A stretch of 59,167 bases of DNA from contig JBEKLS010000004.1 of assembly GCA_050010075.1 (NCBI GenBank), positions 1 through 59,167 on the forward strand, given 5' to 3'. Position 1 is the first letter of the stretch. Each line of letters opens with the position of its first letter. Below the pieces are notes generated by a model. That model searched no databases. It worked only from the letters and a program-made list of their open reading frames with translations, and had not been told where the DNA came from. Position numbers and translations under genes: made by a program. This document shows positions 1,201 through 59,167 of this stretch, piece by piece. Origin of the DNA: Candidatus Binatus sp. (GTDB lineage Bacteria > Desulfobacterota > Binatia > Binatales > Binataceae).

Positions 1201-4200
1201 GTGGTTACCAGCCGCCGCTGCTCGGGCTGCCTGTTCTGCCCCGCTACCTCTGCCGACTGCTCCAATTCCGCCGAGGCGTGTTCGGGCGCAAGCCGGTCGA
1301 AGTACAGGAAAATCACGGGCGTGGTGTATAGCGTCAAGGCCTGGCTGAGAATCAGACCACCAACGATTGCGATTCCCAGCGGCTGACGCAGCTCCGACCC
1401 CATTCCAGTTCCGAGCGCCAGCGGCAGACTTCCCAGCAGCGCCGCCATCGTGGTCATCATGATCGGCCTGAATCGCAGCAGCGAGGCCTGGTAGATCGCG
1501 TCTTCCGCGCTCTTGCCTTCCTGGCGCTGCGCTTCGAGAGCGAAGTCGATCATCATGATGGCGTTCTTTTTGACGATACCAATCAAGAGAATGATGCCGA
1601 TGAGCGCGATGACGTCGAGATCGAGATGGCAGATCAGCAGAGCGAGAATCGCGCCGACGCCGGCCGAAGGCAGCGTCGAGAGAATCGTGATCGGATGGAT
1701 GTAGCTCTCATAGAGCACGCCCAGCACGATATAAACGGTGATCAATGCCGCCAGGATCAGTATCGGCTCGTTGGCGAGGGAGGCGCGGAACGCCGCGGCA
1801 GTGCCCTGGAACGCGCCCTGGATGCTAATCGGCATCCCGATTTCTTTTTGCGCCGCGTTGATCGCATCGACCGCCTCGCCCAGCGAGTAGCCCGACGCGA
1901 GATTGAAAGAAATCGTAACGCAGGGAAATTGTCCCTGATGGTTGATGATGAGGGGCGTACGAGTCTGTTCGTAATGCGTAAACGTGCTCAGCGGCACCTG
2001 ACCGCTGGTCGAATTGACGTAGATTTCCTGCAGCGATTTGGGATCGCGCTGGAATTTCGGGTCCACCTCGAGCACCACGTGATACTGGTTGAGTTCGGTG
2101 AACATGGTGGAGATTTGTTCCTGGCCGAACGCGTCGTAGAGCGTGTTATCGATCGTGGATGAGCTGACACCCAGGCGCGAGGCGGTGCGGCGATCGATTA
2201 CCAGGTGCGCCCCCAGGCCCTCGTTCTGCTGGTCGGTGGCGATGTCGCGCAAGGCGGGCAAGGTTTGCAGCTTGTCCACCAGTTTCGTCGTCCACAGCTT
2301 CAGCTCATCCGGGTTGGGATCTTCGAGCGTGTATTGATATTGCGTCCGGCTCACCCGGTCATCGACGCTGAGATCCTGAACGGCCTGCAGGTAGATCGTA
2401 ATTCCGTGAACTTCGGCCAGCTGGCGCTGCAACCGGCCAATTATCTCCTCGACGTGAGCCTTGCGCTGTCCCAGCGGCTTTAGATTGATCAGAATCCTGC
2501 CGCTGTTAACCGTATCGTTGGTTCCGTCGACGCCGATAAACGATGACAGGCTTTCAACCGCCGGATCGCGCAGGATAACGCTGGTCAACTCCTGCTGCTT
2601 GCGCTCCATCGCGGCGAATGACATCGCTTCCGGACCCTGCGATACGCCCTGGATCACGCCGGTATCCTCGATCGGGAAGAATCCCTTCGGCACGTACCAG
2701 TAGAGAAAGATGGTCAGCACAAGGGTGGCAACCGCGACCATCAATGTGGCTGGTTGATGCTTGAGGACCCAACGGAGCGTGCGGCCATAAAATTCGATGG
2801 TCCACTCGAAGGCGCGCTCCGACATCTGGAACAGCCTGCTCTGCTCTCTCTCCGGCGTATGCTTCAAGAGCTTGGCGGCCATCATCGGCGTCAACGTCAG
2901 CGAAACGACCGCGGAGACCAGGATCGTCACTGCGAGCGTGATCGCGAACTGACGGAAGAGCCGGCCCACGATATCGGCCATGAAGAGCAGCGGAATCAGC
3001 ACCGCAATCAGCGAGATGGTGAGCGACAGGATGGTGAATCCTATTTGGCGCGATCCCTTGAGCGCGGCCTGCAGCGGGGATTCTCCCTCCTCGATATACC
3101 GCGAGATGTTCTCGATCATCACGATCGCGTCGTCCACCACGAAGCCGGTGGAAATCGTCAGCGCCATCAACGTCAGATTGTTCAGGCTGTAGCCGAGCAG
3201 GTACATGACGCCGAACGTGCCCACCAGCGACAGCGGCACCGCGACGCTCGGAATGATCGTGGCCGAGAGGCTGCGCAGGAACAGAAAGATGACCATCACT
3301 ACCAGTGCGATGGTCAGCATCAACTCGAACTCGACGTCCTCGACCGACGCACGGATGGTAGTCGTGCGATCGGTCAGAACCTGCACCTTGACAGCAGATG
3401 GGAGCGAGCTCTGCAGCAGGGGCAGCAGCTTTTTGATCCGGTCGACGACCTGGATGATATTGGCGCCGGGTTGACGCTGCACGTTGAGAATCACAGCCGG
3501 AGTGGAGTTCATCCACGCCGCCTGCTTGACGTTTTCAGGCGCGTCCACCACCGTGGCTACCTGCGACAGAGTCACCGGCGCGCCGTTGTGGTAGGCGATT
3601 ATCAGCGGCCGGTAATCCCTGGCCGAGAGCAACTGATCGTTGTCCTCGATCGTGTAGTCGAGGTTCTTGCCGTCGAAATTTCCCTTGGCCGTATCGACGT
3701 TGGACGCGGCCACTGCAGCGCGGACTTCTTCAAGGGTGATCCCGTAAGATGCAAGTTGGGTCGGATTAAGCTGGATCCGCACCGCGGGCTTCTGTCCGCC
3801 ACTGATAGTCACCAACCCGACGCCAGGTACCTGCGAGATTTTCTCCGACAAGCGCGTGTCGGCGAGGTCCTCGACTTGATACAGCGGCATCTGGGTCGAA
3901 GTCAGGCCGAGGGTCAGAATCGGCGCGTCGGCAGGATTGATCTTGCTGTAGACCGGCGGCGTCGGAAGGTTGGTAGGCAAGTATGTCGCAGCGGCATTGA
4001 TCGCCTCCTGCACTTCCTGCTCGGCCACGTCGATGTTGAGATTAAGATCGAACTGCAGCGTGATCACCGACGCCCCGAAGGAACTGTTCGAGGTCATCTG
4101 GTTAAGGCCCGGAACCTCGCCGAACTGGCGCTCGAGCGGCGCGGTCACCGCAGACGCCATCACGTCCGGGCTAGCCCCCGGATAAAACGTGAGTACCTGG

Positions 4201-9026: not shown

Positions 9027-10063
9027 TTCGATCGCGTCCCTATCACGGTGTCGAGGATTCCGTTTTCGGCGAAGAATTTCTGCTGCGCATCATCCCAGTT
9101 GCGGGCGATCGCGGTGATTGGAAACAAAGTGATGTTCGGAAATTGGATGTTCGCCTTTTGCGCCGCTTCCGGTTTCAGCGGCCGATAGCCGAACTTCGCA
9201 ATAGTCGCTTGCCCCTGATCGGTGAACAGGTACTCGAGGAACGCTTGCGCGACCGCTTGCGTCCCGCGCTTGTCCACATTCGCGTCGACCCACGCCACGT
9301 ACGGCTCCGCCAGGATGCTCACCGGCGGGTACACGACTTCGAGGTTGCCTTTCGATTCCGCGACTTCGCGGATGGCCTCGTCTTCCCAGCTCAACTGCAC
9401 GTCGCCGGTCTCCGCTCCGGTAAAGGTCAGCGCGGCACTGCGCGCACCGGGATCCATCACGGGCGGAACGTGCTGATAGAACGACTTCAGATACGCGCGC
9501 GCGTCCGCCTCGGTTCCTCCACGCGTCACGATCGCGCCCCAGGCAGCCAGCGCGCTCAGCTTGCCGTTGCCCGAAGTCTTCGGATCAGGGGTGATGATCA
9601 GCGTGTCGGAGCGGATCAAATCGGGCCAATCGTGAATGTTCCGCGGATTGCCCTTGCGCACTATAAAAACAATCGTCGAAGTGTACGGGCGAGAGTGATT
9701 CGGCAGCCGCTCGGTCCAGTTGTCCGCGATCAATCCGCGCTTGCGCAACGCATCGACGTCTGTGAACAGTCCCAGCGTCACGACGTCGGCCGGATTTTCG
9801 CCGCTGATGACAGTCCGCGCCTGGCGCGACGAGCCACCGTGCGAATCCACGATGGAGATGCGGTGCCCGGTCCGCTTCTCGTAGTCCGCGGCGAATTCAG
9901 CGTCGATCTGCTGGTAGAGCTCGCGGGTCGCGTCGTACGAAACGTTCAGTAACTGACTGTTAGGGTCGGTCTTGCCGGGGGCGTTCCTTGCAAAAATCAG
10001 CGCGAACGCGATTACCACTGCTGCGACCGCGCCGACGTTTAACCATCGTTGTCCGTTATTCAC
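9023..10063 (-). CDS. sbp: sulfate/thiosulfate ABC-type periplasmic binding protein (Sbp/CysP family)
   Basis: LLNVSYDATRELY, SHGGSSRQAR, PYTSTIVFIVRKGNPRNIHDWPDL, PDPKTSG and SILAEP motifs; GTG start; ATGA overlap with sulP. Confidence 0.93.
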   Translation of the reverse strand: MNNGQRWLNVGAVAAVVIAFALIFARNAPGKTDPNSQLLNVSYDATRELYQQIDAEFAADYEKRTGHRISIVDSHGGSSRQARTVISGENPADVVTLGLFTDVDALRKRGLIADNWTERLPNHSRPYTSTIVFIVRKGNPRNIHDWPDLIRSDTLIITPDPKTSGNGKLSALAAWGAIVTRGGTEADARAYLKSFYQHVPPVMDPGARSAALTFTGAETGDVQLSWEDEAIREVAESKGNLEVVYPPVSILAEPYVAWVDANVDKRGTQAVAQAFLEYLFTDQGQATIAKFGYRPLKPEAAQKANIQFPNITLFPITAIARNWDDAQQKFFAENGILDTVIGTRSK

Positions 10064-10192
10064 CTACTATCCCTATCTTGATGTCCCAGCGGTGTTCAGT
10101 TTGCAGGCCAGGAGCGCCGGTCATTGCGAGATGTCGATCTGATTATCGTTACGGAGTTGTTACAGGAATCGATGTCATGATACAAGACTAAG

Positions 10193-10209
10193 TCCATCGA
10201 GTTACTGGA
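10193..10209. promoter_or_regulatory. candidate operator, copy 1 (TCCATCGAGTTACTGGA)
   Basis: Imperfect palindrome in the sbp/SDR divergent intergenic region; matches copies at 14070 and 18438. Confidence 0.5.
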
Positions 10210-10245
10210 TTAAAATCCTTCAAGGTATCGCGGGGACCGTTTTCC

Positions 10246-10971
10246 ATGGCTGAACAATCAAAACAGACACCCGTGGCTGTAATTCTGGGGGTCGGCCCCG
10301 GATTGGGAGCTGCCGTCGCCCGACGCTTCGCGAAGAGCTACGCAGTTGCGGTGGTCGCGCGCAGGGCCGATTACTTGAAATCGCTCGGCGACAGCATCAG
10401 AGCTTCGGGCGGACGTTCGCTCGAAGTGGCGGCTGACGTGAGCGACCGGGGCCAGGTGGCAGCAGCGTTCAAAAAGATTCGCGAGCACCTCGGCTCCCCG
10501 GATGTGCTGGTATACAACGCCAGCGCCGGCCCTTTCGGCAGCCTCAGCGAGATATCGGCAGAGGAATATGAGAACTCATGGCGGGTCAGCGCCTTGGGGG
10601 CCTTCCTGAGTGCGAAAGAAGTCGTTCCCGAAATGGTAACGCGTGGGCACGGCGTGCTGCTCTTCACCGGCGCCACCGCCGGGGTCAAGGCGGGAGCACG
10701 GTCGGCCGCGTTTGGTTCGTCGAAATTCGCCCTGCGGGGTCTCGCTCAATCGCTGGCGCGCGATCTCGGTCCCAAGGGAATCCACGTCGCGTGGATCAAT
10801 GTCGACGGTGTGATCGACATCCCGCGCATCCGCGAGAGCCGCCCTCAACTGAAGGACGAGGACTTCCTGAAGCCCGACGCTATCGCTGAAACGTACTGGC
10901 ACCTTGCCCATCAGGATCGCAGCGCATGGACTTTGGAGCTGGAGGTTCGTCCATTCAAAGAGAAGTTCTGA
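10246..10971 (+). CDS. SDR family NAD(P)-dependent oxidoreductase (atypical, FxxxK)
   Basis: GVGPGLG Rossmann motif, LVYNA, TGATA; the catalytic YxxxK appears as FGSSK. Confidence 0.9.
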   Translation: MAEQSKQTPVAVILGVGPGLGAAVARRFAKSYAVAVVARRADYLKSLGDSIRASGGRSLEVAADVSDRGQVAAAFKKIREHLGSPDVLVYNASAGPFGSLSEISAEEYENSWRVSALGAFLSAKEVVPEMVTRGHGVLLFTGATAGVKAGARSAAFGSSKFALRGLAQSLARDLGPKGIHVAWINVDGVIDIPRIRESRPQLKDEDFLKPDAIAETYWHLAHQDRSAWTLELEVRPFKEKF

Positions 10972-46463: not shown

Positions 46464-49400
46464 TCACTTCGCGGCCAGTAGCAGACTCTGCAAGCGATCG
46501 AGATCGACCGGTTTCACAAGGTGCTCGTCGAAACCTGCTTCAAAGGCGCGTCGACGGTCCGACTCCTGCCCATATCCAGTGACCGCGATCAATCGAACTG
46601 AAGCGAGTCCCGCATCCGCGCGGAGCCGGCGCACCAGCTCGTAACCGTCCATTACGGGCAGGCCGACATCGATCAACATGACATCGGGTTTGAATGTGCC
46701 CACCAACTCGAGCGAGGAGGGACCGTCGAACGCGGTGCGCGTCAGGAAGCCGAGTTCGGCGAGCGCTTCGGCGAGGGTTTCGGCGCCGTCTTGATTGTCG
46801 TCAACAATCAGCACCTTCCTGCGCGAGCTCGTGGACTCAGCAACTGCTTGCGGCTCCGAAACGATCGTAGCCGACAACCGTGGCGCAGTTGCCTGGCCTT
46901 CTGAGGCCAAGGGAAGCGTAACCACGAATTCACTGCCCTTGCCGATACCTTCGCTATGCGCGGAGACGCTGCCTCCGTGAAGCTCAACCAGGCTCTTTAC
47001 TATGGCGAGTCCGATTCCTAATCCGCCTTGCGCCCGATCGCTTCCGCGCCCGCCCTGCGAGAACAGGTCGAATACCTGCGGTAACATTTCGGACGAAATC
47101 CCGATGCCATTGTCCCGCACACGAAGGACGATCTGGCGATTTTCGCGGCTGGCGCGAATCCAGATCTTACCTCCGCGGTCGGTGTATTTGGCGGCATTGG
47201 TGAGCAGGTTGCTAATGACCTGCGAGAGCCGCGTTGGGTCCGCTTCCAGCTTTAATCCGGTATTGGGCACCGTCGCGATAAGGTGATGCATCTGCTGCTC
47301 GATGATCGGACTTGCCATCTCGATGGCCTTGACCACGACAGTTATCAGTTCAAGCGGCTCGAGCTTGAGCTGAATCTTGCCGCGCGTAATTCGCGATACG
47401 TCCAGCAGGTCATCGATCAGGTTGGCCAGATGACGAACCTGGCGCTCGATGATGTCGCGCTCGCGGCGAAATGAGTCGCTGTCGCGCATCTGGATCAGGT
47501 TGAGCGAGGTGAGAATCGGCGAGAGGGGATTGCGCAGCTCATGGCCAAGCATCGCAAGGAATTCGTCTTTGGCGCGGTTCGCCTCTTCGGCCAATCGTTT
47601 GGCTTCCTGCTCCCGTGCGATTAGCTGCTCCCTTTCTTCGAGAAACCTTTGCCGAAACCGATGAAGCTGCAGATGTGCCCGCACCCGGGCGATAAGTTCA
47701 CGCGCGGAAAATGGCTTCACCAGATAATCGTCCGCACCGTGGGTGAGTCCCTCGACCTGAGACTCCTCCCCTGCGCGGGCGGATAGCAGAATGATTGGAA
47801 TCGAGCTGGTCCTGGGATTCTCGCGCAAGGCACGCAGCAGCCCATAGCCGTCAAGCTTGGGCATCATCACATCGGTCAGGACCAGATCCGGAAGACTCCG
47901 GCTTATCGCATCCAGCGCCTCCAGACCATTGCGGACCGTTTGAACCGTACAGTACGGCGACAGCAGGCGTTTGATGTACCCACGCATATCCGCGTTGTCA
48001 TCGACCAGGAGCACCTCGGCATTTCCGTCAGCCACTGCCTCTGGTTTGCCTTGCTCAACGCGAGTTATCTCAGGAGGCATCGTCTCGCTTCGGCGTTCAC
48101 TGCTCAGCCAGGTGGCCGCCTCTTCGAGATACGGTGCTGCGCCGACTGCGGTCGACGCCACGCTTCGCCGCGCGCTGATGCGATCGCTCGGCAAATGCGC
48201 GCTGCCAGTGGGTAACGAAACGGTAAAAGTACTCCCGCTATCCAGACGGCTCTCAACTTCTATAGTTCCACCGTGCATCTTGACCAATTCGTACACCAAG
48301 GCGAGTCCGATGCCCGATCCCTCGTAGGTGCGGGCCCGCGCGCCTTCCACCCGGTGGAACCTTTGAAAAATCTTCGTCAGTTCATGTTCCGGTATGCCAA
48401 TTCCGGTATCGCTAACCGACAGCTCGAAATTGCGTCCCGCCGATTTCAGGCGGACCGTGATGGTGCCGTGAAAAGTGAATTTGAAGGCATTGGAGATAAG
48501 GTTGAGGACGATTTTTTCCCACATCTCCGGATCGACAAAACACTTGCTGTCGATTCGCTCGCACTGAACGTTCAATGCGAGTCCCGCCCTTTCCGCGAGT
48601 GACTTAAAAGAGGAAGCCAACTCTGCCGTCAGGGCGGCAGTGTCGGTCTCCTGATACGAGGCTTGAACTCGGCCCGCTTCGATCCGGGTGAAGTCGAGCA
48701 AGGTGTTGACCAACTTCAGGAGGCGCAAGCCGTTTCTCTGCACCAGCTGCATCTGTTGCCGATGTTCGTCCGACAATCCGGTGCGCCCATCCGCCAGATC
48801 CTCCAGCGGGCCTAGCATCAGCGTCAATGGAGTGCGGAATTCATGGCTCACGTTGCTGAAGAAGGTCGTCTTGGCGGCATCGATTTCGGCCAGGGCCTGT
48901 GCCCGCTGGCGCTCTTCCTGGTGTGCACGTGCGTTGGCGATTGCAGTTGCGATCTGATCTGCCGCGAGTTGAACAAAGTCGCGATATCGATGATCGAGCT
49001 TGAGCCGCGGGCTAATCCCGGCAATGAGAAACCCGTACGGGCGGCCCTGCCCGGAACGCCGCAGCGGTGCGACGACTGCAGTCTCCGTAGGCTCGGGCCA
49101 GCGTCCACCCGGTAGCCGCCCGAAGCGATCTGCAAGATCAGTAAGCTCGAGGCTGCTGCCCCTCTTCTCGACCTCTGCCAGCGGCCACGAGTCACTCGTG
49201 GCATCCTCGAGCGTCCCATGATCAGTACCGATAATCTCGGGAGCGCCGAGGTGGTTGCGATCGATCCCCACTGAGCTTACCAGGCGCGCATGGTTGCCCT
49301 CAGACTCGATGAGGTAGAGGAGCGCGAAGGGAACATCAGAGGGATTGGCGCCAAGAATTTCCGCTGCAGTCGCGCATGCTTCCTCGGCCGTTTGCGCTTC

Positions 49401-49952
49401 GGCACCGCGCGCTGCCAAATCGCGCAAAGTTTTGAGGCGCCGTTCGGTTAATATCTGCCCAGTGGTCTCCTGCACGGTAGTGAGAATGCCGCCCACGGCT
49501 CCATCGTCCCCGGGAATCGGACTGTATGCGAAAGTAAAATAGGTCTCCTCGATGTATCCGTAGCGATTTACTTCGAGAAGCATATCGGCGCTGAAAGTCG
49601 CGGGGCCGCCGCTCAGAATTTGCGTCGCCATCCGCTGTACTGCGCTCCAGACTTCTGCCCAGACCTCAAACGCCGGTTGCCCAATCGCCGCCGGATGTTT
49701 GGCGCCGAGCATCAGCCGATAGCCGTCGTTGTACAGGTGACGCAGCTCGGGCCCCCACCAGATTCCCATTGGGAAGCTATTGCCCAGCATCACGCTGACC
49801 ATGGTGCGTAGGCTGGCGGGCCATTGGGCGACCGGACCCAGCGGATTGTTGGCCCAATCTATTGTACGGAGCAGCGCCCCCATCTCGCCCCCTCCGGCCA
49901 GACAATGGTCCAAGCTGTCCGATGAGGGACTCTGTGAGGGATCTCTGCTCAT
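46464..49952 (-). CDS. hybrid sensor kinase: PAS/GAF-HisKA-HATPase-REC-HisKA-HATPase-REC
   Basis: GGEMGALLR.IDW N-terminus; SHEFRTPL and GHELRNPL H-boxes; two G-boxes; receivers DVMMP and DVGLP. Confidence 0.94.
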   Translation of the reverse strand: MSRDPSQSPSSDSLDHCLAGGGEMGALLRTIDWANNPLGPVAQWPASLRTMVSVMLGNSFPMGIWWGPELRHLYNDGYRLMLGAKHPAAIGQPAFEVWAEVWSAVQRMATQILSGGPATFSADMLLEVNRYGYIEETYFTFAYSPIPGDDGAVGGILTTVQETTGQILTERRLKTLRDLAARGAEAQTAEEACATAAEILGANPSDVPFALLYLIESEGNHARLVSSVGIDRNHLGAPEIIGTDHGTLEDATSDSWPLAEVEKRGSSLELTDLADRFGRLPGGRWPEPTETAVVAPLRRSGQGRPYGFLIAGISPRLKLDHRYRDFVQLAADQIATAIANARAHQEERQRAQALAEIDAAKTTFFSNVSHEFRTPLTLMLGPLEDLADGRTGLSDEHRQQMQLVQRNGLRLLKLVNTLLDFTRIEAGRVQASYQETDTAALTAELASSFKSLAERAGLALNVQCERIDSKCFVDPEMWEKIVLNLISNAFKFTFHGTITVRLKSAGRNFELSVSDTGIGIPEHELTKIFQRFHRVEGARARTYEGSGIGLALVYELVKMHGGTIEVESRLDSGSTFTVSLPTGSAHLPSDRISARRSVASTAVGAAPYLEEAATWLSSERRSETMPPEITRVEQGKPEAVADGNAEVLLVDDNADMRGYIKRLLSPYCTVQTVRNGLEALDAISRSLPDLVLTDVMMPKLDGYGLLRALRENPRTSSIPIILLSARAGEESQVEGLTHGADDYLVKPFSARELIARVRAHLQLHRFRQRFLEEREQLIAREQEAKRLAEEANRAKDEFLAMLGHELRNPLSPILTSLNLIQMRDSDSFRRERDIIERQVRHLANLIDDLLDVSRITRGKIQLKLEPLELITVVVKAIEMASPIIEQQMHHLIATVPNTGLKLEADPTRLSQVISNLLTNAAKYTDRGGKIWIRASRENRQIVLRVRDNGIGISSEMLPQVFDLFSQGGRGSDRAQGGLGIGLAIVKSLVELHGGSVSAHSEGIGKGSEFVVTLPLASEGQATAPRLSATIVSEPQAVAESTSSRRKVLIVDDNQDGAETLAEALAELGFLTRTAFDGPSSLELVGTFKPDVMLIDVGLPVMDGYELVRRLRADAGLASVRLIAVTGYGQESDRRRAFEAGFDEHLVKPVDLDRLQSLLLAAK

Positions 49953-50050
49953 GTCGTGGAAGGGGAGCTAGCCATGTCGCTCTCAGCTTAGTCGAACGAG
50001 CGAGGGCACTAAGATCAACCTAAGTTGAAAGACGCGACCAGCGCAAGCAG

Positions 50051-51604
50051 CTAGCGAGCAGCATCAGGCCGTATCGATGAACGGCCTCCATCCAGAGCCG
50101 CGGGATACGGCCGGAGCTTGTACAGCGAACCCGCCGCGCCCGGATAAAACATATCGCCGTAGTAGGAAGGCTGGACCATCGTCCCGGAGGTCATTGCGGG
50201 CAATCGGGCCGAACGCGCGATCTCCTGGCCCGTCGCTGCGTTGCGCCACACGACCTCGTCCTCCGTGTTGATATCCGGAATCTCGGCACCGGGAATGTCC
50301 GAGCCTACGATGACGCGCTGGTCGGGAGGGCCGATAATCGCGATGAATTCGGTCGTTGTTTGCGCTACCTTCCAGGCCGTCTGCAGTCCCGAGGAGCCGA
50401 GATGTACTGCCGCGATCTCGCCCGGCAGCGCGTCCATCGCGTAGATCAGGTTCGATTGCGGATCGACGGAGACCGTTGCCGCATTCCAACTGACAGCCTG
50501 TGTGCCACCAGGAGCCTGCTTGCAGAATGCGATCTTGACGAGGGGCGGGATAGGATCGCCGGCAAAGGGTTGGATCGTGAACTGCTTCGAAGCATCTCGC
50601 TGGTTGATCGCGAAAACGCTCAACGGCGTGGATGCAGGGAGCCCATTGGATTGGCCGACGACCCAGTCGTTCAGGACTACAAGCGCCCACCCCGGAGTCT
50701 GGCCGGGGAGGAGCAGCGTACCCGGATTCCATCCGGAATCCAGGGTCAGGCGTCCTTTTCTGACTTCATAACGGATGCAAGTGTCCACTACGAACAGATA
50801 AACGTACTCGTGACCATTATGCTCGCCGACCGTCACGCGCCCGATAACGTCGGCCGACAAGGTTGTCTGGTCAATGACCTTCATCGTGCGCGGATCGACC
50901 GTGACCAGGACCGAGTTGGGGACGTCCGAGGGGTCAGGACAATCCGCGAGCGCGTTGGGACCCTGAACGGTACAGCCAGCCTGACGATAGAATGCCTTGG
51001 CGATGATCGTGCCGTCGCTGGTCGCGCTGAATCCGTTGTACGTTGTGTCGGCTGGTGCCGCCTGGCCGGTTGGTAGTGCGAGCATTGCAAGCACATGGCC
51101 CGTGGAAGGGTCGATCTTCGAGAGGCGATACCCATAGATGACGTACAACTTGCCGTTGTTGAGAAGGGCTTGGGTGCCGGGATAGTCCCACTCGCCGCTA
51201 TCCGAAGTATTGATCAGTTGAGTGTACCAAACGGGTTGAAGGGTGCCCGGATCAATCTGTGCGACGTAAGCGCCGATGGAAGAGAAATCGTTGCCTGAGC
51301 CTCCGCCGTACAGAACCATTTGCTCAGGACTCAAATAGGTAATGTTCCAGGCGGAGGGGTAGATCTCATCCGACTGCACCGTAGTGACGGTGTTGTCTCC
51401 CGAGAAGAGTCCGCCGAACCTTGCCTGCGGAAAGAGATGCGAACGGCCGGAATCATAGTGTTCGAACGCGGCGAGCGATGGATACCAGGGACGATTTGTT
51501 TCATTGCCATGCGCGTAGGAAGCGGTTACGAACGACAGCAAACCGATAACCGCCAACGCCATTCGATAGTTCTTTCGGCCCTTACGCGATTCAATTGCTC
51601 CCAT
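50051..51604 (-). CDS. secreted hypothetical protein (possible beta-propeller)
   Basis: Signal peptide ending ASYA; repeated xIDPxT/G-type turns (IDPGT, IDPSTG, VDPRT, VDPQS, NAATG). Confidence 0.75.
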   Translation of the reverse strand: MGAIESRKGRKNYRMALAVIGLLSFVTASYAHGNETNRPWYPSLAAFEHYDSGRSHLFPQARFGGLFSGDNTVTTVQSDEIYPSAWNITYLSPEQMVLYGGGSGNDFSSIGAYVAQIDPGTLQPVWYTQLINTSDSGEWDYPGTQALLNNGKLYVIYGYRLSKIDPSTGHVLAMLALPTGQAAPADTTYNGFSATSDGTIIAKAFYRQAGCTVQGPNALADCPDPSDVPNSVLVTVDPRTMKVIDQTTLSADVIGRVTVGEHNGHEYVYLFVVDTCIRYEVRKGRLTLDSGWNPGTLLLPGQTPGWALVVLNDWVVGQSNGLPASTPLSVFAINQRDASKQFTIQPFAGDPIPPLVKIAFCKQAPGGTQAVSWNAATVSVDPQSNLIYAMDALPGEIAAVHLGSSGLQTAWKVAQTTTEFIAIIGPPDQRVIVGSDIPGAEIPDINTEDEVVWRNAATGQEIARSARLPAMTSGTMVQPSYYGDMFYPGAAGSLYKLRPYPAALDGGRSSIRPDAAR

Positions 51605-51744
51605 CGTATGCTCTTGGAAATCCCTCCCAACACACGGCCGATGCGCTGACGTCAACATTCTGTTGCCGACATTTCGGAAATTATGACGTTTTCCCACCTC
51701 GTGCTCTAGATAGCCGCTCGGATTCTATGTCGACCGGGAAGCCC

Positions 51745-51777
51745 GGACTAAGCGGCTCTGGCCAGGGCGCGACGCGC
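51745..51777. repeat. 33-bp direct repeat, left copy (orphan copy of the BBE gene 3' end)
   Basis: GGACTAAGCGGCTCTGGCCAGGGCGCGACGCGC; 30/33 identical to 57836-57868; minus strand reads ARRALARAA-stop. Confidence 0.85.
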
Positions 51778-51928
51778 TGAAGCTGTCGAGCCCATCAGTC
51801 GTCCGATCCTCTCGCGAACCCGGGCCAAGAGGGGTAGTCAGCCGCCAAAGTCTTTCATAGACTCGGCGGGCCCGAGGGGATAAGGACACGCAGACTCTGT
51901 CGAATCGAGCGCGGAGTCTCGGGCCGCT

Positions 51929-52915
51929 ATGCGCAACAAGCAACTGATCGCTCTTGGCCTCGGAACGGCCCTGCTTGTTTACCTGATTTACGAAACCGGC
52001 TCCGCCGGCCTGGTCGAAAACCTCAAGCTGATCGGACCGAAGATCGTCTTCATTATCGGCATCGAGCTGATCGTCGATCTTTTCAACACGGTCGGATGGT
52101 GGTTCACGTTTGCGCCCGACCTGCGTCGCGGCATTTTTGGCTTTCTCTACCTGGTGCGGCTGGCGGGCAGCGCGCTGAACCAGGTCCTGCCGGCAGCCTC
52201 GATGGGGGGCGAGCCGGCGAAGGTGATGCTGTTGCGGCCGCATCTGCCGGCGGCCGCGGCGACTGCCAGCGTGCTGACTTCGCGCGTGGCTTTCACCTTT
52301 GCCAAGGCTATTTTCATCGCATTCGGGATGCTGATCACGTGGCATCGGCTCAAGCTACCAGAGGGTCTGTCGAGCGCGCTGCTGATCGGATTCATCCTCA
52401 CGATGTGCGGCCTGATTGTCTTCCTGATGCTCCAGCTTCGAGGATTTGCGCGAGTGACCGCGCGATTTGGAGGCCTCATCGGATTGCCCGAAAAATGGGT
52501 CGCGACAATCGAGGGTGCTTCGAGCTCGGTCGATGCTCACGTGGTGAGCTTTTACCGAACACGCCCCGGCGACATGGCGCGAGCAATCGTCGCGCATCAG
52601 TTCGCCTTCGCGTTCGGCGTGCTGCAGGTGTCGCTGCTGCTCGGATGGCTCAACCTGCCGAACGATTGGCAGACCAGCCTCGCGATCGAGGCGTTCTCGG
52701 CCCTGGTCGGCTTCATCATCTTCGTGGTGCCGGGCTCGGTCGGGGTACAGGAAGTGAGTAAGGTTCTGATCTTCGCGGCGCTGGGATTACCGACTTCCGC
52801 CGGGATGGGCGTGGGAATCGCCTTTCGCCTGAACGATATCGCAGGTTCGATTATCGGTCTGGCGGTATTCGCACTACTTCAAGCACGGGCCGTTCCGCGG
52901 ATGGAACAGGATTAG
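51929..52915 (+). CDS. lysylphosphatidylglycerol-synthase-TM / flippase-like membrane protein
   Basis: About 8 TM; RLAGSALNQVLPAASMGGEPAK and VPGSVGVQE motifs of the LPG_synthase_TM family. Confidence 0.82.
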   Translation: MRNKQLIALGLGTALLVYLIYETGSAGLVENLKLIGPKIVFIIGIELIVDLFNTVGWWFTFAPDLRRGIFGFLYLVRLAGSALNQVLPAASMGGEPAKVMLLRPHLPAAAATASVLTSRVAFTFAKAIFIAFGMLITWHRLKLPEGLSSALLIGFILTMCGLIVFLMLQLRGFARVTARFGGLIGLPEKWVATIEGASSSVDAHVVSFYRTRPGDMARAIVAHQFAFAFGVLQVSLLLGWLNLPNDWQTSLAIEAFSALVGFIIFVVPGSVGVQEVSKVLIFAALGLPTSAGMGVGIAFRLNDIAGSIIGLAVFALLQARAVPRMEQD

Positions 52916-52988
52916 CGCAGAGGTATTCCGCGTCGAGGTGTTAGCCGTGGGGTACCGCAAGGCCACAGAACCAAACAGGCAGTCAAAA

Positions 52989-54269
52989 TCATACACCGCT
53001 TGCGCCAACGGTCTGCGCACGAGCTGATCGTGCTGCCTCGTTGATGCACCAGGCAGCGTGAATAGCCGCTGTGACTCCCGCCCAGGCGACAGCCGAGTAA
53101 AATGAAATTACGGGGACTCCCAGGAAAAACCCGGGCAAAAATAACCAGGTGTAAATGTTGCGCCGACCCGCAACGAGTCGGAACCGGGACAGAAATGCGG
53201 TGGCATTGTCGACGCTTCGGTGCCACTTAACGTCGGCCACCGAGTAGACAATGTTGTCGGTTAAATCGAACGCGACCATTAGAAGGGCCGCATGCCAGGC
53301 AAACTTCGATCCGCTCTTGTGGAGAAAGAATCCCAGAGCCAACCACCACGAGTTCTCGTAAAAGAAATCCAGTATGTGCTCGTACTCGCCCGCTTTTGAG
53401 GTGGTGCGTGTGATGCGCGCGAGCTTGCCGTCCACGCCGTCGAGCACCTCGACGAAGATTGCGAGGAGAACCCCGACTCGCAGCCACCCAATGGCATAGA
53501 GCGCCGCCACCAAGAACCCTAAAAGAGTGGTGGCTAGAGTTACCTGGTTGGCGGTGATCGCAGTCGGTGCGAGACGGCGGACAAGCAGGTTTTCGAAGAA
53601 TGGGTCGAAATAGCGCGCGGGCAGCTCCTGCGTCCGCCGCTGGATATAGTCCAGAAGAATCTGCCACGCCTGTTCCGCATCGTCGTCGTTCCTGATGCGG
53701 TGCAGATGGAGCGGAACGTCACCGTGCATGGCCTCCCAATACGTCGGCAGAGAGCCGACATTGACGACATTGACGTGAGCGGCCTCAAGATTCGGTGCGT
53801 CGAGCGATTTCGCGCGGAGAAACGCCGCGGTCTCGGGCCGTTCGCCTATCCGCGGACTCAGGATCACCTCGGTATTTTGCGCGGTCAGCCAGTAGAGGAG
53901 CCGTTGATCGATCAACAGATCTGCTGCGACGAGGATGAATCGATCGTGAAGATGAGCGCGAGCGTCACGGAGCATCTCCCATACTGTGGTCCCAGAGGTG
54001 TCTACGTATAAGACGTCTTTGCGAACGCGCTTTGATGGCGGCGGCAATGACAAATCTATCGGCTTCAGAAGCAGCACGGACTCGACGGTTTCCAATTCTG
54101 AAAGTTGACGAAGCAGTCGTTCGAGGAGAGTAATCCCGCCCACAATGCGGAGCGGATTTGCGGTCGCATCGGGGCAGACCACTACTGCCTGAAACCGCGC
54201 TAACGCGGTCGAGGGAGTGGCCGGTTCCATGGCGTCGGCATCCATGGATTGCTCAAGCGCGCCGCCCAT
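52989..54269 (-). CDS. CDP-alcohol phosphotransferase with N-terminal nucleotidyltransferase-like domain
   Basis: ITANQVT, DGVDGKLAR signature; N-terminal VGGITLLERLLRQL resembles NTP-transferase domains. Confidence 0.85.
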   Translation of the reverse strand: MGGALEQSMDADAMEPATPSTALARFQAVVVCPDATANPLRIVGGITLLERLLRQLSELETVESVLLLKPIDLSLPPPSKRVRKDVLYVDTSGTTVWEMLRDARAHLHDRFILVAADLLIDQRLLYWLTAQNTEVILSPRIGERPETAAFLRAKSLDAPNLEAAHVNVVNVGSLPTYWEAMHGDVPLHLHRIRNDDDAEQAWQILLDYIQRRTQELPARYFDPFFENLLVRRLAPTAITANQVTLATTLLGFLVAALYAIGWLRVGVLLAIFVEVLDGVDGKLARITRTTSKAGEYEHILDFFYENSWWLALGFFLHKSGSKFAWHAALLMVAFDLTDNIVYSVADVKWHRSVDNATAFLSRFRLVAGRRNIYTWLFLPGFFLGVPVISFYSAVAWAGVTAAIHAAWCINEAARSARAQTVGASGV

Positions 54270-54272
54270 ATC

Positions 54273-55268
54273 CTATTGTTCTCCGGTCGCGAGGACGCGC
54301 TCCCGTGCTTTGCGTCCTATGCCAGAGGCGAGCGAAATACTGCTCCGCAGGCTCTTCAGAGGTTCTCCGAGCGAATGCGAGATCATTCGCACGCAACCGA
54401 GACAACATCCCTCTTCGCACGGCTTATGGCGATTGTTGCTTCGCAGCTCGGCGAGGTCCATTTCGGCCAAGGGAAAAACGTAATCGCGCTGCTGCGCGCA
54501 CCACTGCACGCCTCCCTTCGAGTTGACGTACAAAAACTTGAACCCTGCCATGCATTTCCACTTTCTCGAAAAATCGCCGAGAAGCATCTCCTGTAAATGC
54601 TCGCCATAAAAGTTCATCCCATCGAAAACGCCATAGCGGCGAAGAATATCGAGAAACTTCCGGCCGTGAATCGCGATCCGGCCGCCACGGCCGTGCATGA
54701 TTGAAAAGCCGAAGGCGAAAGGAAAGTCCTTCAGCATCTCGCGGAAGCGATCATAGTCAGGGAATGTTTCCTCATTCAGGACGGTCTGAACCTCAACCTG
54801 GAACTTGGCGCGCTTCGCGAGCAGCTCCATCTTCGGGAGAAGCGACTTCAGGGATTTCAAGGAGCGGGGAGACGGTTCGATCGAATCGACCGACAACTGC
54901 ATAAAGTCGAGTCCAGAGGCATTAAGGCGCTCGATGTTGCGTTCGCCCAGAAAAAATCCATTTGTGATGACCGTTGTAACGTTCGAGCCGCCGCGCTTCG
55001 ACTTGGTATGTGCGATCAGATCGTCAAGGCCGGGATGGAGCAAGGGTTCACCGCCGAGGAGGTCGTAAACCAGCACGCCCAGTTCGTCGAGCTTGTCGAT
55101 ACGGACCTTCAGGTCCGCCAGCGGGACGATCGGACCCCCGGGCGTGTACTCGTCGCAGTAGTCGCAGGTCAGATTGCAGTCGTCAGTGACGACGACCTGC
55201 GCATACATAGGACGCGAATCCAGCACGCGCTTAGCGCCTGTGAGCACAAACTGCTTATCGACTGCCAT
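54273..55268 (-). CDS. radical SAM protein with twitch/SPASM-like domain
   Basis: CNLTCDYC, GGEPLLHP, TNG; C-terminal CMAG...WC...CEEGCCLGC. Start 55268 follows GGAGG (the ORF is open to 55346). Confidence 0.9.
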   Translation of the reverse strand: MAVDKQFVLTGAKRVLDSRPMYAQVVVTDDCNLTCDYCDEYTPGGPIVPLADLKVRIDKLDELGVLVYDLLGGEPLLHPGLDDLIAHTKSKRGGSNVTTVITNGFFLGERNIERLNASGLDFMQLSVDSIEPSPRSLKSLKSLLPKMELLAKRAKFQVEVQTVLNEETFPDYDRFREMLKDFPFAFGFSIMHGRGGRIAIHGRKFLDILRRYGVFDGMNFYGEHLQEMLLGDFSRKWKCMAGFKFLYVNSKGGVQWCAQQRDYVFPLAEMDLAELRSNNRHKPCEEGCCLGCVRMISHSLGEPLKSLRSSISLASGIGRKARERVLATGEQ

Positions 55269-55385
55269 AAGGGCCTCCGAGGTATTGGCGAGCCATCTCG
55301 CCGGCTGTTGCATGCCGATATGGGAAACTGAACGGCCTTGCGCCATTCCACTTCTGAATGCCGATTGCGATCGCGCCCGTAAGCA

Positions 55386-56735
55386 TCAGAAGGGATAGTC
55401 AATTCCGCTAAAGATGGAGATGCCTTCGTTGCCGTATCCGACATCGACAAACCCGACCACGAACGGATCGGCGATTGCGCGAAAGCCCATCCCTCCCGCT
55501 GGATGAAAATCGTCTACCGGGTTGCTGGTGAAATCGTGGCTCACCTTGCCGAGGTCGAAGAACGGCGCGAGCTCGATGATGGCCTTGGTCTGAAAAATAT
55601 TGAGCGCGTAGACCCGCGTTCGCAGCTCAACGTTGAAAGCCTCGATGTTGTTGTCGCTGAAGCGGGCGGTGCCAAAGCCGCGATTGGTCGCGCGATCGAC
55701 AAAGAAATCGCTGCCTTCGCCGCCGAGCCGGGCGAGCGACCAGAAAGGTGTTTCGTTGCCGGCCGGCGAATACTGGATCAGGGTATGTGCAGCCAGCACG
55801 AATCGCTGGCCGAACGGTTCATAATGGCTGAGCTCGGTACCGAATCGCGTGTACGAAAATGAGCTTCCGAAATCTCGATCGGCAAAGCCGGCGAAGACCC
55901 GGTAGATTCCTCCCCGGGTCGGGAGGTCGGTCGAATCGCGATTGTCAAAGGAGGCGACCAGTCCCTGATATATGTCGCTGCCACCGTCGAGGCCCTTAAC
56001 CTTGGGAAACAACTGCGCGGGAGATGGAAGATCGAAGGCGCCGGAACCGATGCGCACATATCGTGGCCGCGCCTCCACTCCGACCTGAAACTGTTCCGAG
56101 ATGTTGATTCCCAGCAGGCCGCGAAAGTAGACCTGCTTGGTCGCATAGTTGGTTTCATTGCCTTGCGAGGAGTGGTTGCCGATCCCGTAAAATCGCTCGG
56201 TGGGGTCGTCTTCCCAAAAAAGTTCGCCGTCGAATGACCACCATTTTTGGCGGTCGCGCCCAATGGAATAGGTCAAATCGATGTTGTGCGCTTTTTCTAG
56301 CTGCGCGCCACCGGTAACTGACCAGTGAACGTCGCTGGAGGGATAATCGAGATAGCGGAAATCGCCCCCGACACCGAGCGTCGTATTATTGGTGATGTCG
56401 GGCGCGATGATGCTGCTGACGTCGCCGTTGGTGTCGTGCTGCAGGAAGACCGTCATCAGCCCGTAGGTGGTGCCGCCATTCGGACTGGTCGCTACCTCGG
56501 GTACGGGAATGAAAGGCCATGAGTTCGGATCGAGCGGCTGAAAGGCGTGCGCGGAATTCGGGCGGGCGATCGCGAATACAAATGCCAGAATCAGCAGGAA
56601 TGCCTGCTGCCAGTCGACGCGTGCGGCGGATTTTCTCCGATCAGCCAAATCAGCTAGCCACTTGGGTGCGCAGAAGTACGTCCCGGGACCTTTGTCAGTT
56701 AGCGTGGGCCGAAATAATCTGCGGGTAATTTGCAT
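55386..56735 (-). CDS. Omp85/BamA-TamA-like outer-membrane beta-barrel without POTRA domains
   Basis: DNRDS...PTRG, RGFG.ARF, ELR, FFDLGKV, GMGFR, C-terminal YPF beta-signal; start uncertain. Confidence 0.8.
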   Translation of the reverse strand: MQITRRLFRPTLTDKGPGTYFCAPKWLADLADRRKSAARVDWQQAFLLILAFVFAIARPNSAHAFQPLDPNSWPFIPVPEVATSPNGGTTYGLMTVFLQHDTNGDVSSIIAPDITNNTTLGVGGDFRYLDYPSSDVHWSVTGGAQLEKAHNIDLTYSIGRDRQKWWSFDGELFWEDDPTERFYGIGNHSSQGNETNYATKQVYFRGLLGINISEQFQVGVEARPRYVRIGSGAFDLPSPAQLFPKVKGLDGGSDIYQGLVASFDNRDSTDLPTRGGIYRVFAGFADRDFGSSFSYTRFGTELSHYEPFGQRFVLAAHTLIQYSPAGNETPFWSLARLGGEGSDFFVDRATNRGFGTARFSDNNIEAFNVELRTRVYALNIFQTKAIIELAPFFDLGKVSHDFTSNPVDDFHPAGGMGFRAIADPFVVGFVDVGYGNEGISIFSGIDYPF

Positions 56736-56841
56736 TTCGTTCGCGAGTAACGCAAGTGTGCATGTGCATTGGCCGACGAGCCGATATCGCGTAAAAATTC
56801 GCCCAAGAACCGGGGTCTCGGGACAGGGGAATTCAGAGCTG

Positions 56842-57810
56842 ATGGATCCTTCGATCGTAGCGAAAGGCGCGATGGCTTGGCTCGGGGTGAAGCCATCTCC
56901 GATCAGTCTCGCCTACGAACTCTCGTGGCTTTGCAACCTGGAGTGCGCCTACTGCGATCGCCACACTCCAATGGCTAATGAGATGACGCGCGATCAGATT
57001 TTCAAGGCGCTCGGCGAGTTCGTCGAACTCGGCGCGAGCAGCGTCAGCCTCGACGGTGGCGAGCCGCTGGCTCATCCCAATGTCGCGGAGATCGTGCAGT
57101 TCCTGGTCGAGCGCGAGGTCGAGGTGTCGATGCACACCAACGGCATCCTGGTGCCGCGTAAGATTGATACGATTCGCCAGCTGAAAAAAGTGAAGATCAG
57201 CCTCGACGGACCGCAGGAAGTCCACGATTCGATGCGTGGGGCCGGTTCATTCGACAGCGCAATCGGGGGAGCGCGGGCCGCCATCCAGGCGGGCGTGCGG
57301 GTAGAGTTCACTTGCTCGGTGGGTCGTCACAACGCGGACGCGATCGGACAGCTGCTCGACATCGTGGAAGGTCTCGGCAGCAGCGTCATCTTCCAGCCCG
57401 TGCGTAACAGCCTCTTCGTCTATACGCAGCGCGACGGTAAGGCGTGGGAGCTGGAGCATCGCCGGAGCCTCGCGACGTTCGCCCAAATCGAGGCTGCGAA
57501 ACGGGCTGGACGAGCGGTGGCAAATCAATGGTCGAGCCTGCGCCATTTCCGCAGCTTTCCGTTCGAGGCGCGGCCGCCCTGCGCCGCAGGGTGGATCCTC
57601 TGCACGATGGATCCCGAAGGCGTGCTTTTCCATTGCGGTGAACGCGATCGCGGCGATCGAACCAACAATGTGATCCGGATGGGCGTGGCAGGCGCGTTTG
57701 CCAACCTGACAAAGTCAGCATGCGGCCAGTGCTGGTGCGCGCGCTCGGTCGAGGAGAACTACGTTTGGGGTCTACGCTTCGACAAAATGCTCCCGCCGCT
57801 GCGCCACTGA
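56842..57810 (+). CDS. radical SAM protein with twitch/SPASM-like domain
   Basis: CNLECAYC, GGEPL, TNG, ISLDG...HD..RG.GSF; C-terminal CAAG...HC...CGQCWC. Confidence 0.9.
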   Translation: MDPSIVAKGAMAWLGVKPSPISLAYELSWLCNLECAYCDRHTPMANEMTRDQIFKALGEFVELGASSVSLDGGEPLAHPNVAEIVQFLVEREVEVSMHTNGILVPRKIDTIRQLKKVKISLDGPQEVHDSMRGAGSFDSAIGGARAAIQAGVRVEFTCSVGRHNADAIGQLLDIVEGLGSSVIFQPVRNSLFVYTQRDGKAWELEHRRSLATFAQIEAAKRAGRAVANQWSSLRHFRSFPFEARPPCAAGWILCTMDPEGVLFHCGERDRGDRTNNVIRMGVAGAFANLTKSACGQCWCARSVEENYVWGLRFDKMLPPLRH

Positions 57811-57835
57811 GGACCGACGGATATTGACGCCGTCT

Positions 57836-57868
57836 GGACTACGCCGCTCTAGCCAGGGCGCGACGCGC
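57836..57868. repeat. 33-bp direct repeat, right copy (actual 3' end of the BBE gene)
   Basis: GGACTACGCCGCTCTAGCCAGGGCGCGACGCGC; includes the TAG stop at 57839-57841. Confidence 0.85.
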
Positions 57869-59167
57869 AGTCGCATAGAGCGCCTCGCGCAAGTTTGATC
57901 GGCGCTCCATCGTGCTGGCGGTCGGCGGGATGCTTTGCGGGAAATGGAAAACCTGCATTGGATCGACCTGCGCCTTGATCGATTCCAGCCGCGACAGATT
58001 GGCGCCGTAGTAGTCCTGCTGCCATGTCGTCAGCGAAGGGTCGGGAAAATTGACGTAGGCCCCGCCGCTGAAATTACGCATCGCCTCATAGAAGTTCGCT
58101 TGCCATTCAAGATTGCTCTGCACAGTGGGCCGGCTATCGTGGGCGCCCCAGCTAAGCGCAAGCGTCATCAGCCACTCACTGTCGCGATGCACAAAGGCGG
58201 TCGCCGCGGGCGCGACTGCGTTGACCTGGGCGCCGGTTTGGAAGAGCACGAAACTCGCCGCTTCAGAAGTGCCGGGCCATGTGCGCAAGAAAGAAAACGC
58301 AGCTGCGATTGCCTCGGAGCTCGGCGGCGCGCCGAAAAATGACGATCGCTCCTGATAGCGGTCGGGAGGTCCGGGCTCGTCCAGGAAGTTCAGTTGCGCG
58401 TCCCAATACGGCAATTGCTCGATGTCGGCGGACACAGGCGCCGCGACCTGGTAAACGGGAGCGAGAATATCGGCCAGCTCGGCCGGCGTGCCCGCAAGCT
58501 GTCCCAGCAGCGTCATAGTAACATCCTGTCCCGCCGCCAGTTGCGCGGGGGTCACGGCCGAAGCGCCAATGCGATTTCCCATGGTTGAGGGAGCATCCCG
58601 AAGCGCATCGACCAGCGCCGCATAAATTGCGTCGGATTGCCCGCTCCACATGATCTCGAAGACGGTAATCAGGTCATCGGCCGGCATGGTCTGCAGGCTG
58701 AAAGAAGTGTTAATCCCGAAGTTGCCACCGCCGCCGCCGCAGCACGCCCAAAATAAATCCGGGTTCTCAGTGGCGCTGAGCGTCAGGATTTGCCCTCCTG
58801 CGGTGACAATCTCGCTGCTCAACACCTGATCGCAACCGAGGCCGTAGCGGCGCATGTTGAAGCCAATTCCGCCGCCCAGCAAAAACCCGGCTGCGCCTAC
58901 TCCGATGCATCGGCCGTGAGTGATGGTCGCATCGGCGGCCTGCAACGCGGAATACAGATCGACGTTGCGAATGCCGCCGCCGATCGTGACGATGCCGGTG
59001 GACGGCGCGAACTGAGCCTGATTGATAAGCGTCATATCGATCATCAGTCCGTGCGTAGTCGAAAACCCGGCATAGGAGTGACCGCCGGACCGCGTAATCA
59101 GCGGGATCTCGTTCCGCTGCGACCATAAAATTGCCTGCGCCACGTCGGTCGCGCTGGCGCATTTGGC
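57839..59167 (-). CDS. FAD-linked oxidoreductase, berberine-bridge-enzyme family (5' end outside the window)
   Basis: RSGGHSY (FAD-His), HGRC.GVG (second covalent Cys), DLFWA..GGGGGNFGI, GAYVNF and YYG.N..RL..IK..VDP BBE domain; the frame stays open to the window edge. Confidence 0.92.
   Translation of the reverse strand, partial: AKCASATDVAQAILWSQRNEIPLITRSGGHSYAGFSTTHGLMIDMTLINQAQFAPSTGIVTIGGGIRNVDLYSALQAADATITHGRCIGVGAAGFLLGGGIGFNMRRYGLGCDQVLSSEIVTAGGQILTLSATENPDLFWACCGGGGGNFGINTSFSLQTMPADDLITVFEIMWSGQSDAIYAALVDALRDAPSTMGNRIGASAVTPAQLAAGQDVTMTLLGQLAGTPAELADILAPVYQVAAPVSADIEQLPYWDAQLNFLDEPGPPDRYQERSSFFGAPPSSEAIAAAFSFLRTWPGTSEAASFVLFQTGAQVNAVAPAATAFVHRDSEWLMTLALSWGAHDSRPTVQSNLEWQANFYEAMRNFSGGAYVNFPDPSLTTWQQDYYGANLSRLESIKAQVDPMQVFHFPQSIPPTASTMERRSNLREALYATARRALARAA

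Follow-up and report, generated by a model that had tools for sequence, protein, structure and literature searches.

Cis-mobilizable elements (CIMEs) are described as elements that have lost their integration and transfer genes but retain attL and attR (PMC6323972). In type VI secretion system effector-immunity arrays and at Rhs loci, orphan gene 3′ ends have been proposed to arise by homology-facilitated illegitimate recombination that moves the old ends downstream, the so-called displacement model (PMC5361080). The locus examined here lies in a 59,167-nt stretch of Candidatus Binatus sp. (GenBank assembly GCA_050010075.1, contig JBEKLS010000004.1), referred to below as the window, which is the entire contig. 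A ~6-kb block of five genes is bracketed there by two 33-bp direct copies of the 3′ end of a gene encoding a BBE-type FAD-linked oxidase (hereafter BBE), one copy completing that gene and the other orphaned in front of a 548-aa gene. The two copies match different natural alleles of the BBE end found in related genomes, which points to recombination between two molecules each carrying such an end.

As in the displacement model, a conserved gene would act as the homologous anchor with non-homologous cargo behind it, the old gene end would be pushed downstream as an orphan, no recombinase is found, and alleles of different strains lie next to each other (PMC5361080). Unlike in the loci treated there, the displaced piece would be no more than the terminal 33 bp of a metabolic oxidase gene, in place of a toxin tip plus immunity gene, and a single event is seen instead of an array, with no donor configuration observed. 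CIMEs (PMC6323972) resemble the locus in being recombinase-free blocks between direct repeats at a gene 3′ end, at a site that is empty in relatives, but here no mobility-gene relic and no cognate integrative and conjugative element (ICE), integrative and mobilizable element (IME) or integrase was found for the site, each repeat is a different naturally occurring allele of the target gene, and the core of the block occurs elsewhere without repeats. With its flanking direct repeats and the empty site in relatives the locus looks like a CIME, but repeats by themselves do not demonstrate att sites.

Two further classes were rejected. For an insertion sequence or transposon, a transposase and terminal inverted repeats are lacking, and in place of a short identical target duplication the repeat is 33 bp long with two different alleles. 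In integron cassettes, a single promoterless open reading frame (ORF) has a folded attC site behind it, and the junctions carry GTTRRRY cores; an integron cassette or cluster of attC sites lacking an integron integrase (CALIN) does not fit five genes on both strands with no inverted-repeat structure at either end, and GTTRRRY (no attC covariance model was run) is absent from both junction sequences. The feature behaves like a scar left at a gene end by recombination that brought in new genes, a fairly ordinary footprint of a known kind that by itself reveals no new mechanism.

Two natural alleles in one repeat pair

The copies at 51745-51777 (left) and 57836-57868 (right) are identical at 30/33 bases. 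Both read GCG CGT CGC GCC CTG GCx AGA GCx GCx TAG on the minus strand, giving ARRALARAA-stop, and the three mismatches fall at third codon positions only (GCC/GCT, GCC/GCG, GCT/GCG), exactly as a first-pass annotation of this DNA had described. That annotation also took the right copy for the end of BBE and the left one for an orphan, which proved correct: the left copy is placed in non-coding DNA, with its reading frame shut 30 codons upstream, and lies 140 bp (from ATG 51604) or 47 bp (from GTG 51697) upstream of the 548-aa gene. The longest exact run common to both copies is 17 bp, and ungapped similarity ends sharply at both sides of the 33-mer.

Comparison of the three variable sites across 13 single-copy relatives showed that both versions exist in nature. 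The A,G,G allele of the left copy is found in 10/13, eight of which are identical to that copy over positions 7-33, while one relative each carries G,G,G (G012) and T,G,G (L044). The C,C,A allele of the right copy is found in L045 only, which matches it at 33/33 positions. The adjoining 270 bp of BBE are likewise closest to L045 (94.0%, vs 84.8-90.1% for the others), and a Thr in the LYAT motif of BBE is common to the window and L045 only. The ARRALARAA tail is kept in 12/14 orthologous gene ends and is therefore real coding sequence. Neither copy has a private change, so the two did not diverge in place after a target duplication, and all mismatches are synonymous because both copies derive from working genes.

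Two different natural BBE alleles therefore exclude simple target duplication, and the structure appears to unite the BBE ends of two strains. They also make a displaced BBE end, which the first-pass annotation had set against its own proposal in the form of a BBE remnant, at least as likely a reading of the left copy as an att site. Both window flanks are closest to L045, the relative with the right-copy allele, yet the left copy is contiguous with the flank containing the 548-aa gene; either copy could be the resident one, and the assignment made below is an inferred choice.

Longer decayed BBE homology at the left copy was considered and rejected. The two codons before the repeat read Ala-Ser there, as in most orthologues, but DNA similarity is not above that of shuffled sequence (151 bp on the right-hand side of the left copy, aligned locally with 300 bp of BBE; score 10, reached by 221/500 shuffles) and the resemblance was taken as chance. 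A chance origin of the repeat itself was also rejected: when the window was simulated 30 times with a second-order Markov model, 33-nt direct matches (exact 11-mer seed) reached 23-26/33 at best, against 30/33 observed. An assembly artefact was rejected because independent Logan contigs of the probable source run span both junctions (50500-52731 and 56780-58900), and the right junction is also bridged by a contig of another peat sample (57690-57997). Assemblers' usual word lengths exceed 17 bp, and with a shared exact run below that length the structure is not an assembly join.

The genome-wide search for the 33-mer called for in the first-pass annotation revealed no dispersed repeat. With ≤6 substitutions allowed, each 33-mer occurs in two places only in all 307 contigs of the draft genome (4,748,738 bp, 91% complete, so that absence of a gene from it is not proof), as does the 17-mer core. 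A scan of the whole genome yielded 109 isolated short direct-repeat pairs, mostly dispersed palindromic intergenic repeats resembling repetitive extragenic palindromic (REP) sequences; the pair at BBE is among the few that include the stop codon of a long ORF, and no other family like it was found among the 109. Several families of such REP-like repeats, 25-65 nt long, are present in the genome (e.g. C1 at 34663/44523/55284, C12 and C27), with examples of units containing GGTGCAGGGGTCACCCCTGC or CCTCTCCCTGTCAGGGAGAGG. The window also has a 104-bp direct repeat (5-108 and 3139-3242; 86 matches, 3.1 kb apart), one copy of which is inside an AcrB-type transporter gene.

Empty sites and the five-gene block

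BBE orthologues were identified in 7/47 genomes of the genus (E ≤ 1e-80, the window's own included), with ~90% identity in G012, G013, G045 and G049, a partial gene in G023 and 66% identity in G019. In G012, the sequences matching window positions 50052-51783 (92.5%) and 57840-59167 (90.7%) abut with a 35-bp overlap equal to one repeat copy, so that BBE is followed directly by the 548-aa gene with a single copy and no block. This is the arrangement that the first-pass annotation had suggested looking for in relatives. A pattern scan of metagenome contigs returned nine contigs, two of which, L045 and L050, hold closer examples of the empty site, again with one repeat copy. In L045 the left flank is 97.0% identical over 1,769 bp and BBE 94.4% over 306 bp; in L050 the values are 96.1% for the left flank and 84.7% for BBE. 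Outside the window's genome, the block was seen at this site only in near-identical contigs of the sequencing runs examined. With three empty relatives at graded distance, one gain is more parsimonious than three precise losses, and the block was most likely gained in the window's lineage.

In the single repeat copy of L050 the BBE stop reads TAT (Tyr), and the frame continues into the spacer before the 548-aa gene. Orthologues of the latter gene are present in only 3/47 genus genomes; together with BBE it forms a conserved two-gene block of ~3.3 kb, the surroundings of which otherwise differ between G012 (C2, 1-49800) and the window's own genome (contigs C4, C61, C136 and C186).

The BBE stop codon (window 57836-57841) is a common homology breakpoint (loci L021, L022, L040, L041 and L044-L052). 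Downstream of it at least three unrelated contexts occur, all diverging within ~12 nt of the stop: a sedolisin-like gene (Pro-kumamolisin activation domain; annotated in G013 and L044, with G045, G049, L046, L048, L049 and L052 grouped by flank similarity), a convergent molybdopterin oxidoreductase gene (annotated in L047, with L051 grouped by flank) and the 548-aa gene (G012, L045 and L050). L045, although 97% identical to the window, also lacks a 20.8-kb stretch (22098-42883) encoding CoA-transferases, a sigma-54 activator, luciferase-like monooxygenases and an MMPL transporter, among others, as well as a 1,162-aa hybrid histidine kinase gene (46483-50009).

The block is filled by five intact genes (Table 1). 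Its intergenic gaps are ≤151 bp, leaving no space for a hidden recombinase gene, and no decayed integrase or transfer gene was recognized in it. The statement of the first-pass annotation that no recombinase lies between the copies held: Pfam identified no recombinase or transposase family in 41 window proteins (the five of the block and 36 others), and the block, like a CIME, has no integrase or transfer genes of its own. Terminal inverted repeats were not found at the block ends, promoter and terminator scans gave nothing informative, and there is no compositional anomaly (G+C content 0.588 in the block, 0.573 in the window, 0.611 in the genome). The 426-aa protein gave weak matches to inositol-phosphate-type synthases, all far under their cut-offs. 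Because every NCBIfam match of the five block proteins is under its curated cut-off, the domain content suggests an envelope or polar-lipid head-group module with no named pathway. The BBE gene is 1.6 kb long, and the closest named relatives of its product are annotated as Candidatus Binataceae.

Table 1 Positions of the repeat copies, the inserted block and the genes in and beside it.
Feature	Position in window	Strand	Remarks
517/548-aa gene	50051..51604	minus	no Pfam family; hydrophobic signal-peptide-like N-terminus (read by eye)
Left copy (orphan BBE gene end)	51745..51777	minus	last 9 codons and stop of BBE gene plus 3 nt past stop; non-coding here; A,G,G allele
Inserted block	51778..57835		6,058 bp, five intact genes; absent from empty-site relatives G012, L045 and L050
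HpnL-like/flippase-like membrane protein, 328 aa	51929..52915	plus	Pfam LPG_synthase_TM, E 2.5e-20; TIGR03476 HpnL, E 8e-34, under curated cut-off
426-aa protein, C-terminal CDP-alcohol phosphatidyltransferase domain (residues 239-332)	52989..54269	minus	Pfam CDP-OH_P_transf
Radical SAM enzyme 1 (MoaA/SPASM-like), 357 aa	54273..55346	minus	Pfam Radical_SAM
Omp85-family outer-membrane protein, 449 aa	55386..56735	minus	Pfam Omp85
Radical SAM enzyme 2, 322 aa from ATG	56842..57810	plus	Pfam Radical_SAM; ORF open from 56662
Right copy (functional BBE 3′ end)	57836..57868	minus	C,C,A allele; 33/33 identical to single copy of L045
BBE-type FAD-linked oxidase gene	57839..59167	minus	BBE/FAD_binding_4; 5′ end past contig edge, continues on contig C61

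Three of the five genes, encoding Radical SAM 1, the CDP-alcohol transferase protein and the HpnL-like protein (~3.3 kb), form a core that is present in 5/47 genus genomes, with amino-acid identities to the window of 85-90%, 69-77% and ~50%, respectively. In the four other genomes it lies in unrelated contexts, with no flanking repeats (≥20/24) and with no Omp85 gene found beside it. The core is the sole stretch common to three of the core-bearing loci and is therefore itself a block that changes context. In one locus (L034; G054:C10, ~9160-10405 after reversal), the CDP-alcohol transferase gene appears as two overlapping matches (residues 1-79 and 78-415), possibly due to a frameshift.

An orthologue of Radical SAM 2 is absent from the 46 other genus genomes (best match 33%) and from 400 genomes of the phylum, where the one other match at E ≤ 1e-40 is 31% identical; metagenome proteins 75-91% identical to it exist. 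A profile scan returned 53 loci from other phyla (49-68% identity) in which the remaining block genes are unlinked: an adjoining paralogue resembling Radical SAM 1 (28-33%) was found in 17, and there was one match each resembling the LPG_synthase_TM (32%) and CDP-alcohol transferase (29%) proteins. A first scan of genome contigs for other contexts of the block gave no match, nor did 72,556 plasmid records. Given the limited spread of the core and the unlinked Radical SAM 2 of other phyla, the five-gene block is a local mosaic and not a widespread unit. In metagenome genomes of Alphaproteobacteria (L068-L085, L096, L107 and L114), a further radical SAM gene, its product sharing 28-33% identity with Radical SAM 1, lies directly behind relatives of Radical SAM 2 (55-58%), and the two may be a conserved pair.

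Routes to the present arrangement

The route tentatively favoured, which falls slightly short of probable when taken alone, is homologous pairing at BBE, with the previous gene end displaced by an illegitimate join. DNA arriving from a related strain would have brought a BBE gene, or only its 3′ portion, with the block behind it. One side of this DNA would have paired by homology with the resident BBE gene, and the far end would have been attached illegitimately at a point 33 bp ahead of the resident stop codon. BBE would now be completed by the incoming end (right copy), while the resident end (left copy) would have moved 6 kb downstream to the front of the 548-aa gene, leaving the 33-bp direct repeat as a scar that does not require a dedicated recombinase. 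Such a one-sided homologous plus illegitimate event would account for both the sharp boundary of similarity and the two alleles.

Around the locus, blocks of one to three genes form a mosaic whose breakpoints fall at gene ends. From the 1,162-aa kinase gene, which it otherwise lacks, L045 retains a degenerate 3′-terminal remnant of ~19 nt, and orphan gene ends thus recur as scars here. A contig of run X4 (window 57762-58065, depth ~5) has no listed differences from its start to 57909, the right end of the block and the right copy being as in the window, while the differences listed at 57910-58001 include at least ~10 substitutions and two small deletions. This may hint at the block being linked to another BBE allele, as if by crossovers inside BBE.

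Several observations weigh against this route. A donor configuration, with BBE followed by the block and other DNA and with no left copy, was not found among the sequences searched, and the one-sided event is reconstructed from its products. The right copy shares 5-6 nt past the stop codon (TGGAC) with the 548-aa-gene flank of L045, so that the donor itself would have had this type of flank, with the block ~8 nt behind the stop, which assumes one extra event. Furthermore, if the affinity of both flanks to L045 is taken at face value, the left copy would be the import, with a crossover in GGACTA, which would fit site-specific exchange better.

Site-specific exchange would underlie mobilization in trans, one of the two routes named in the first-pass annotation (the other being short-homology recombination), which also suggested that the cassette may be excisable. 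The copies would be attL and attR of an integrative element without a recombinase (CIME-like or otherwise cargo-only), with the BBE 3′ end as target, a tyrosine recombinase encoded elsewhere and excision still possible in trans. An insertion/deletion polymorphism exactly at the BBE end was indeed found, and a discrete block bracketed by direct repeats of a gene 3′ end, with empty sites in relatives, is what such an element would leave. With an L045-like recipient, exchange would be confined to 6-7 nt (GGACTA) at the repeat edge, too short for RecA and the typical length of a tyrosine-recombinase overlap region, and the genome has five PF00589 matches, on other contigs.

No observation identifies the copies as att sites of an excisable element, and this origin is considered unlikely. 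No third copy of the site and no integrase beside similar sequence were found anywhere in the draft genome, and 0/24 ORFs downstream of BBE in four relatives encode a recombinase, so that no related ICE, IME or integrase using the same site was identified in either set. The block holds five intact genes and no relic of an integrase or transfer gene, its core lies in four other genomes with no flanking repeats, and a terminal-repeat scan and reading by eye detected no inverted-repeat or dif-like architecture within the 33-mer. Circles, or joints skipping the block, were not seen over 50500-58900 in the assembled contigs of four runs (X1-X4), although assembled contigs drop rare forms and X2, of which ~59% was read, covers only 50500-51114, so that this result speaks neither for nor against excision.

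Lower in probability, and distinctly improbable, is a circle carrying the block and one copy of the BBE end, integrated by a RecA-dependent single crossover (Campbell type) within the 33 bp of homology and lost in the same way. The geometry agrees, since integration of this type likewise flanks an insert with direct duplications of the shared fragment, restores the target gene and needs no recombinase, and the two alleles would be accounted for if the circle came from another strain. The shared fragment is, however, very short: the alleles share ≤17 uninterrupted identical bases of the 33, and the minimal efficient pairing segment of E. coli RecA pathways is ~23-27 bp. A circle with a BBE end would also first need a separate origin event, and in the assembled contigs neither a circle nor a skipping joint was seen.

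A longer homology would be available if a circular or tandem intermediate, crossing over within the 1.6-kb BBE gene, had left a large portion of that gene duplicated at either end of the block, and a later deletion had then spared only the last 33 bp of the downstream copy. Long homology is an efficient recombination substrate, the end state would be the one observed, and orphan gene-end remnants occur elsewhere in the neighbourhood. Taken separately, this two-step history is poorly probable: it requires an additional deletion, one end of which falls precisely within the gene tail, BBE similarity does not extend beyond the 33 bp, and none of the 13 related loci shows an intermediate with a longer remnant. 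Counted together with the favoured one-sided pairing and illegitimate join, it brings a displaced BBE end just onto the probable side.

Least probable, to the point of being very doubtful, is an ancestral block with precise deletions between the repeats in G012, L045 and L050: deletion between direct repeats is easy, and the empty sites carry left-type (L050 exact, G012 with one difference) or right-type (L045) alleles, as crossovers at different points could yield, but three independent losses would be needed against one gain, the L045 allele would require a crossover left of position 7 in ≤7 nt of homology, the confinement of the core to 5/47 genus genomes and of Radical SAM 2 to one of them argues otherwise, and the repeat would still have to originate in an insertion event.

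Probable gene gain at the BBE end

The BBE end could conceivably be one case of a general, undescribed docking of recombinase-free cassettes at the last codons of resident genes, with the gene end duplicated and the gene kept intact. In its favour, at least three alternative downstream contexts and the block all break ≤ ~12 nt from the BBE stop; on balance such generality seems improbable. If it were true, with one dedicated trans-acting mechanism behind it, docking at gene ends would be a new class of cassette mobility.

As it stands, the locus provides a clean, relative-dated example of an uncultured soil or peat bacterium adding a multi-gene module, apparently of envelope or lipid type, in which the two junctions have survived along with three empty sites and with parental alleles, two in number, that can be told apart. 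The allele evidence points to a scar of recombination between two strains, not a target duplication by cut-and-paste transposition; it is a useful addition that may be reused in reading similar gene-end repeats in metagenome genomes.

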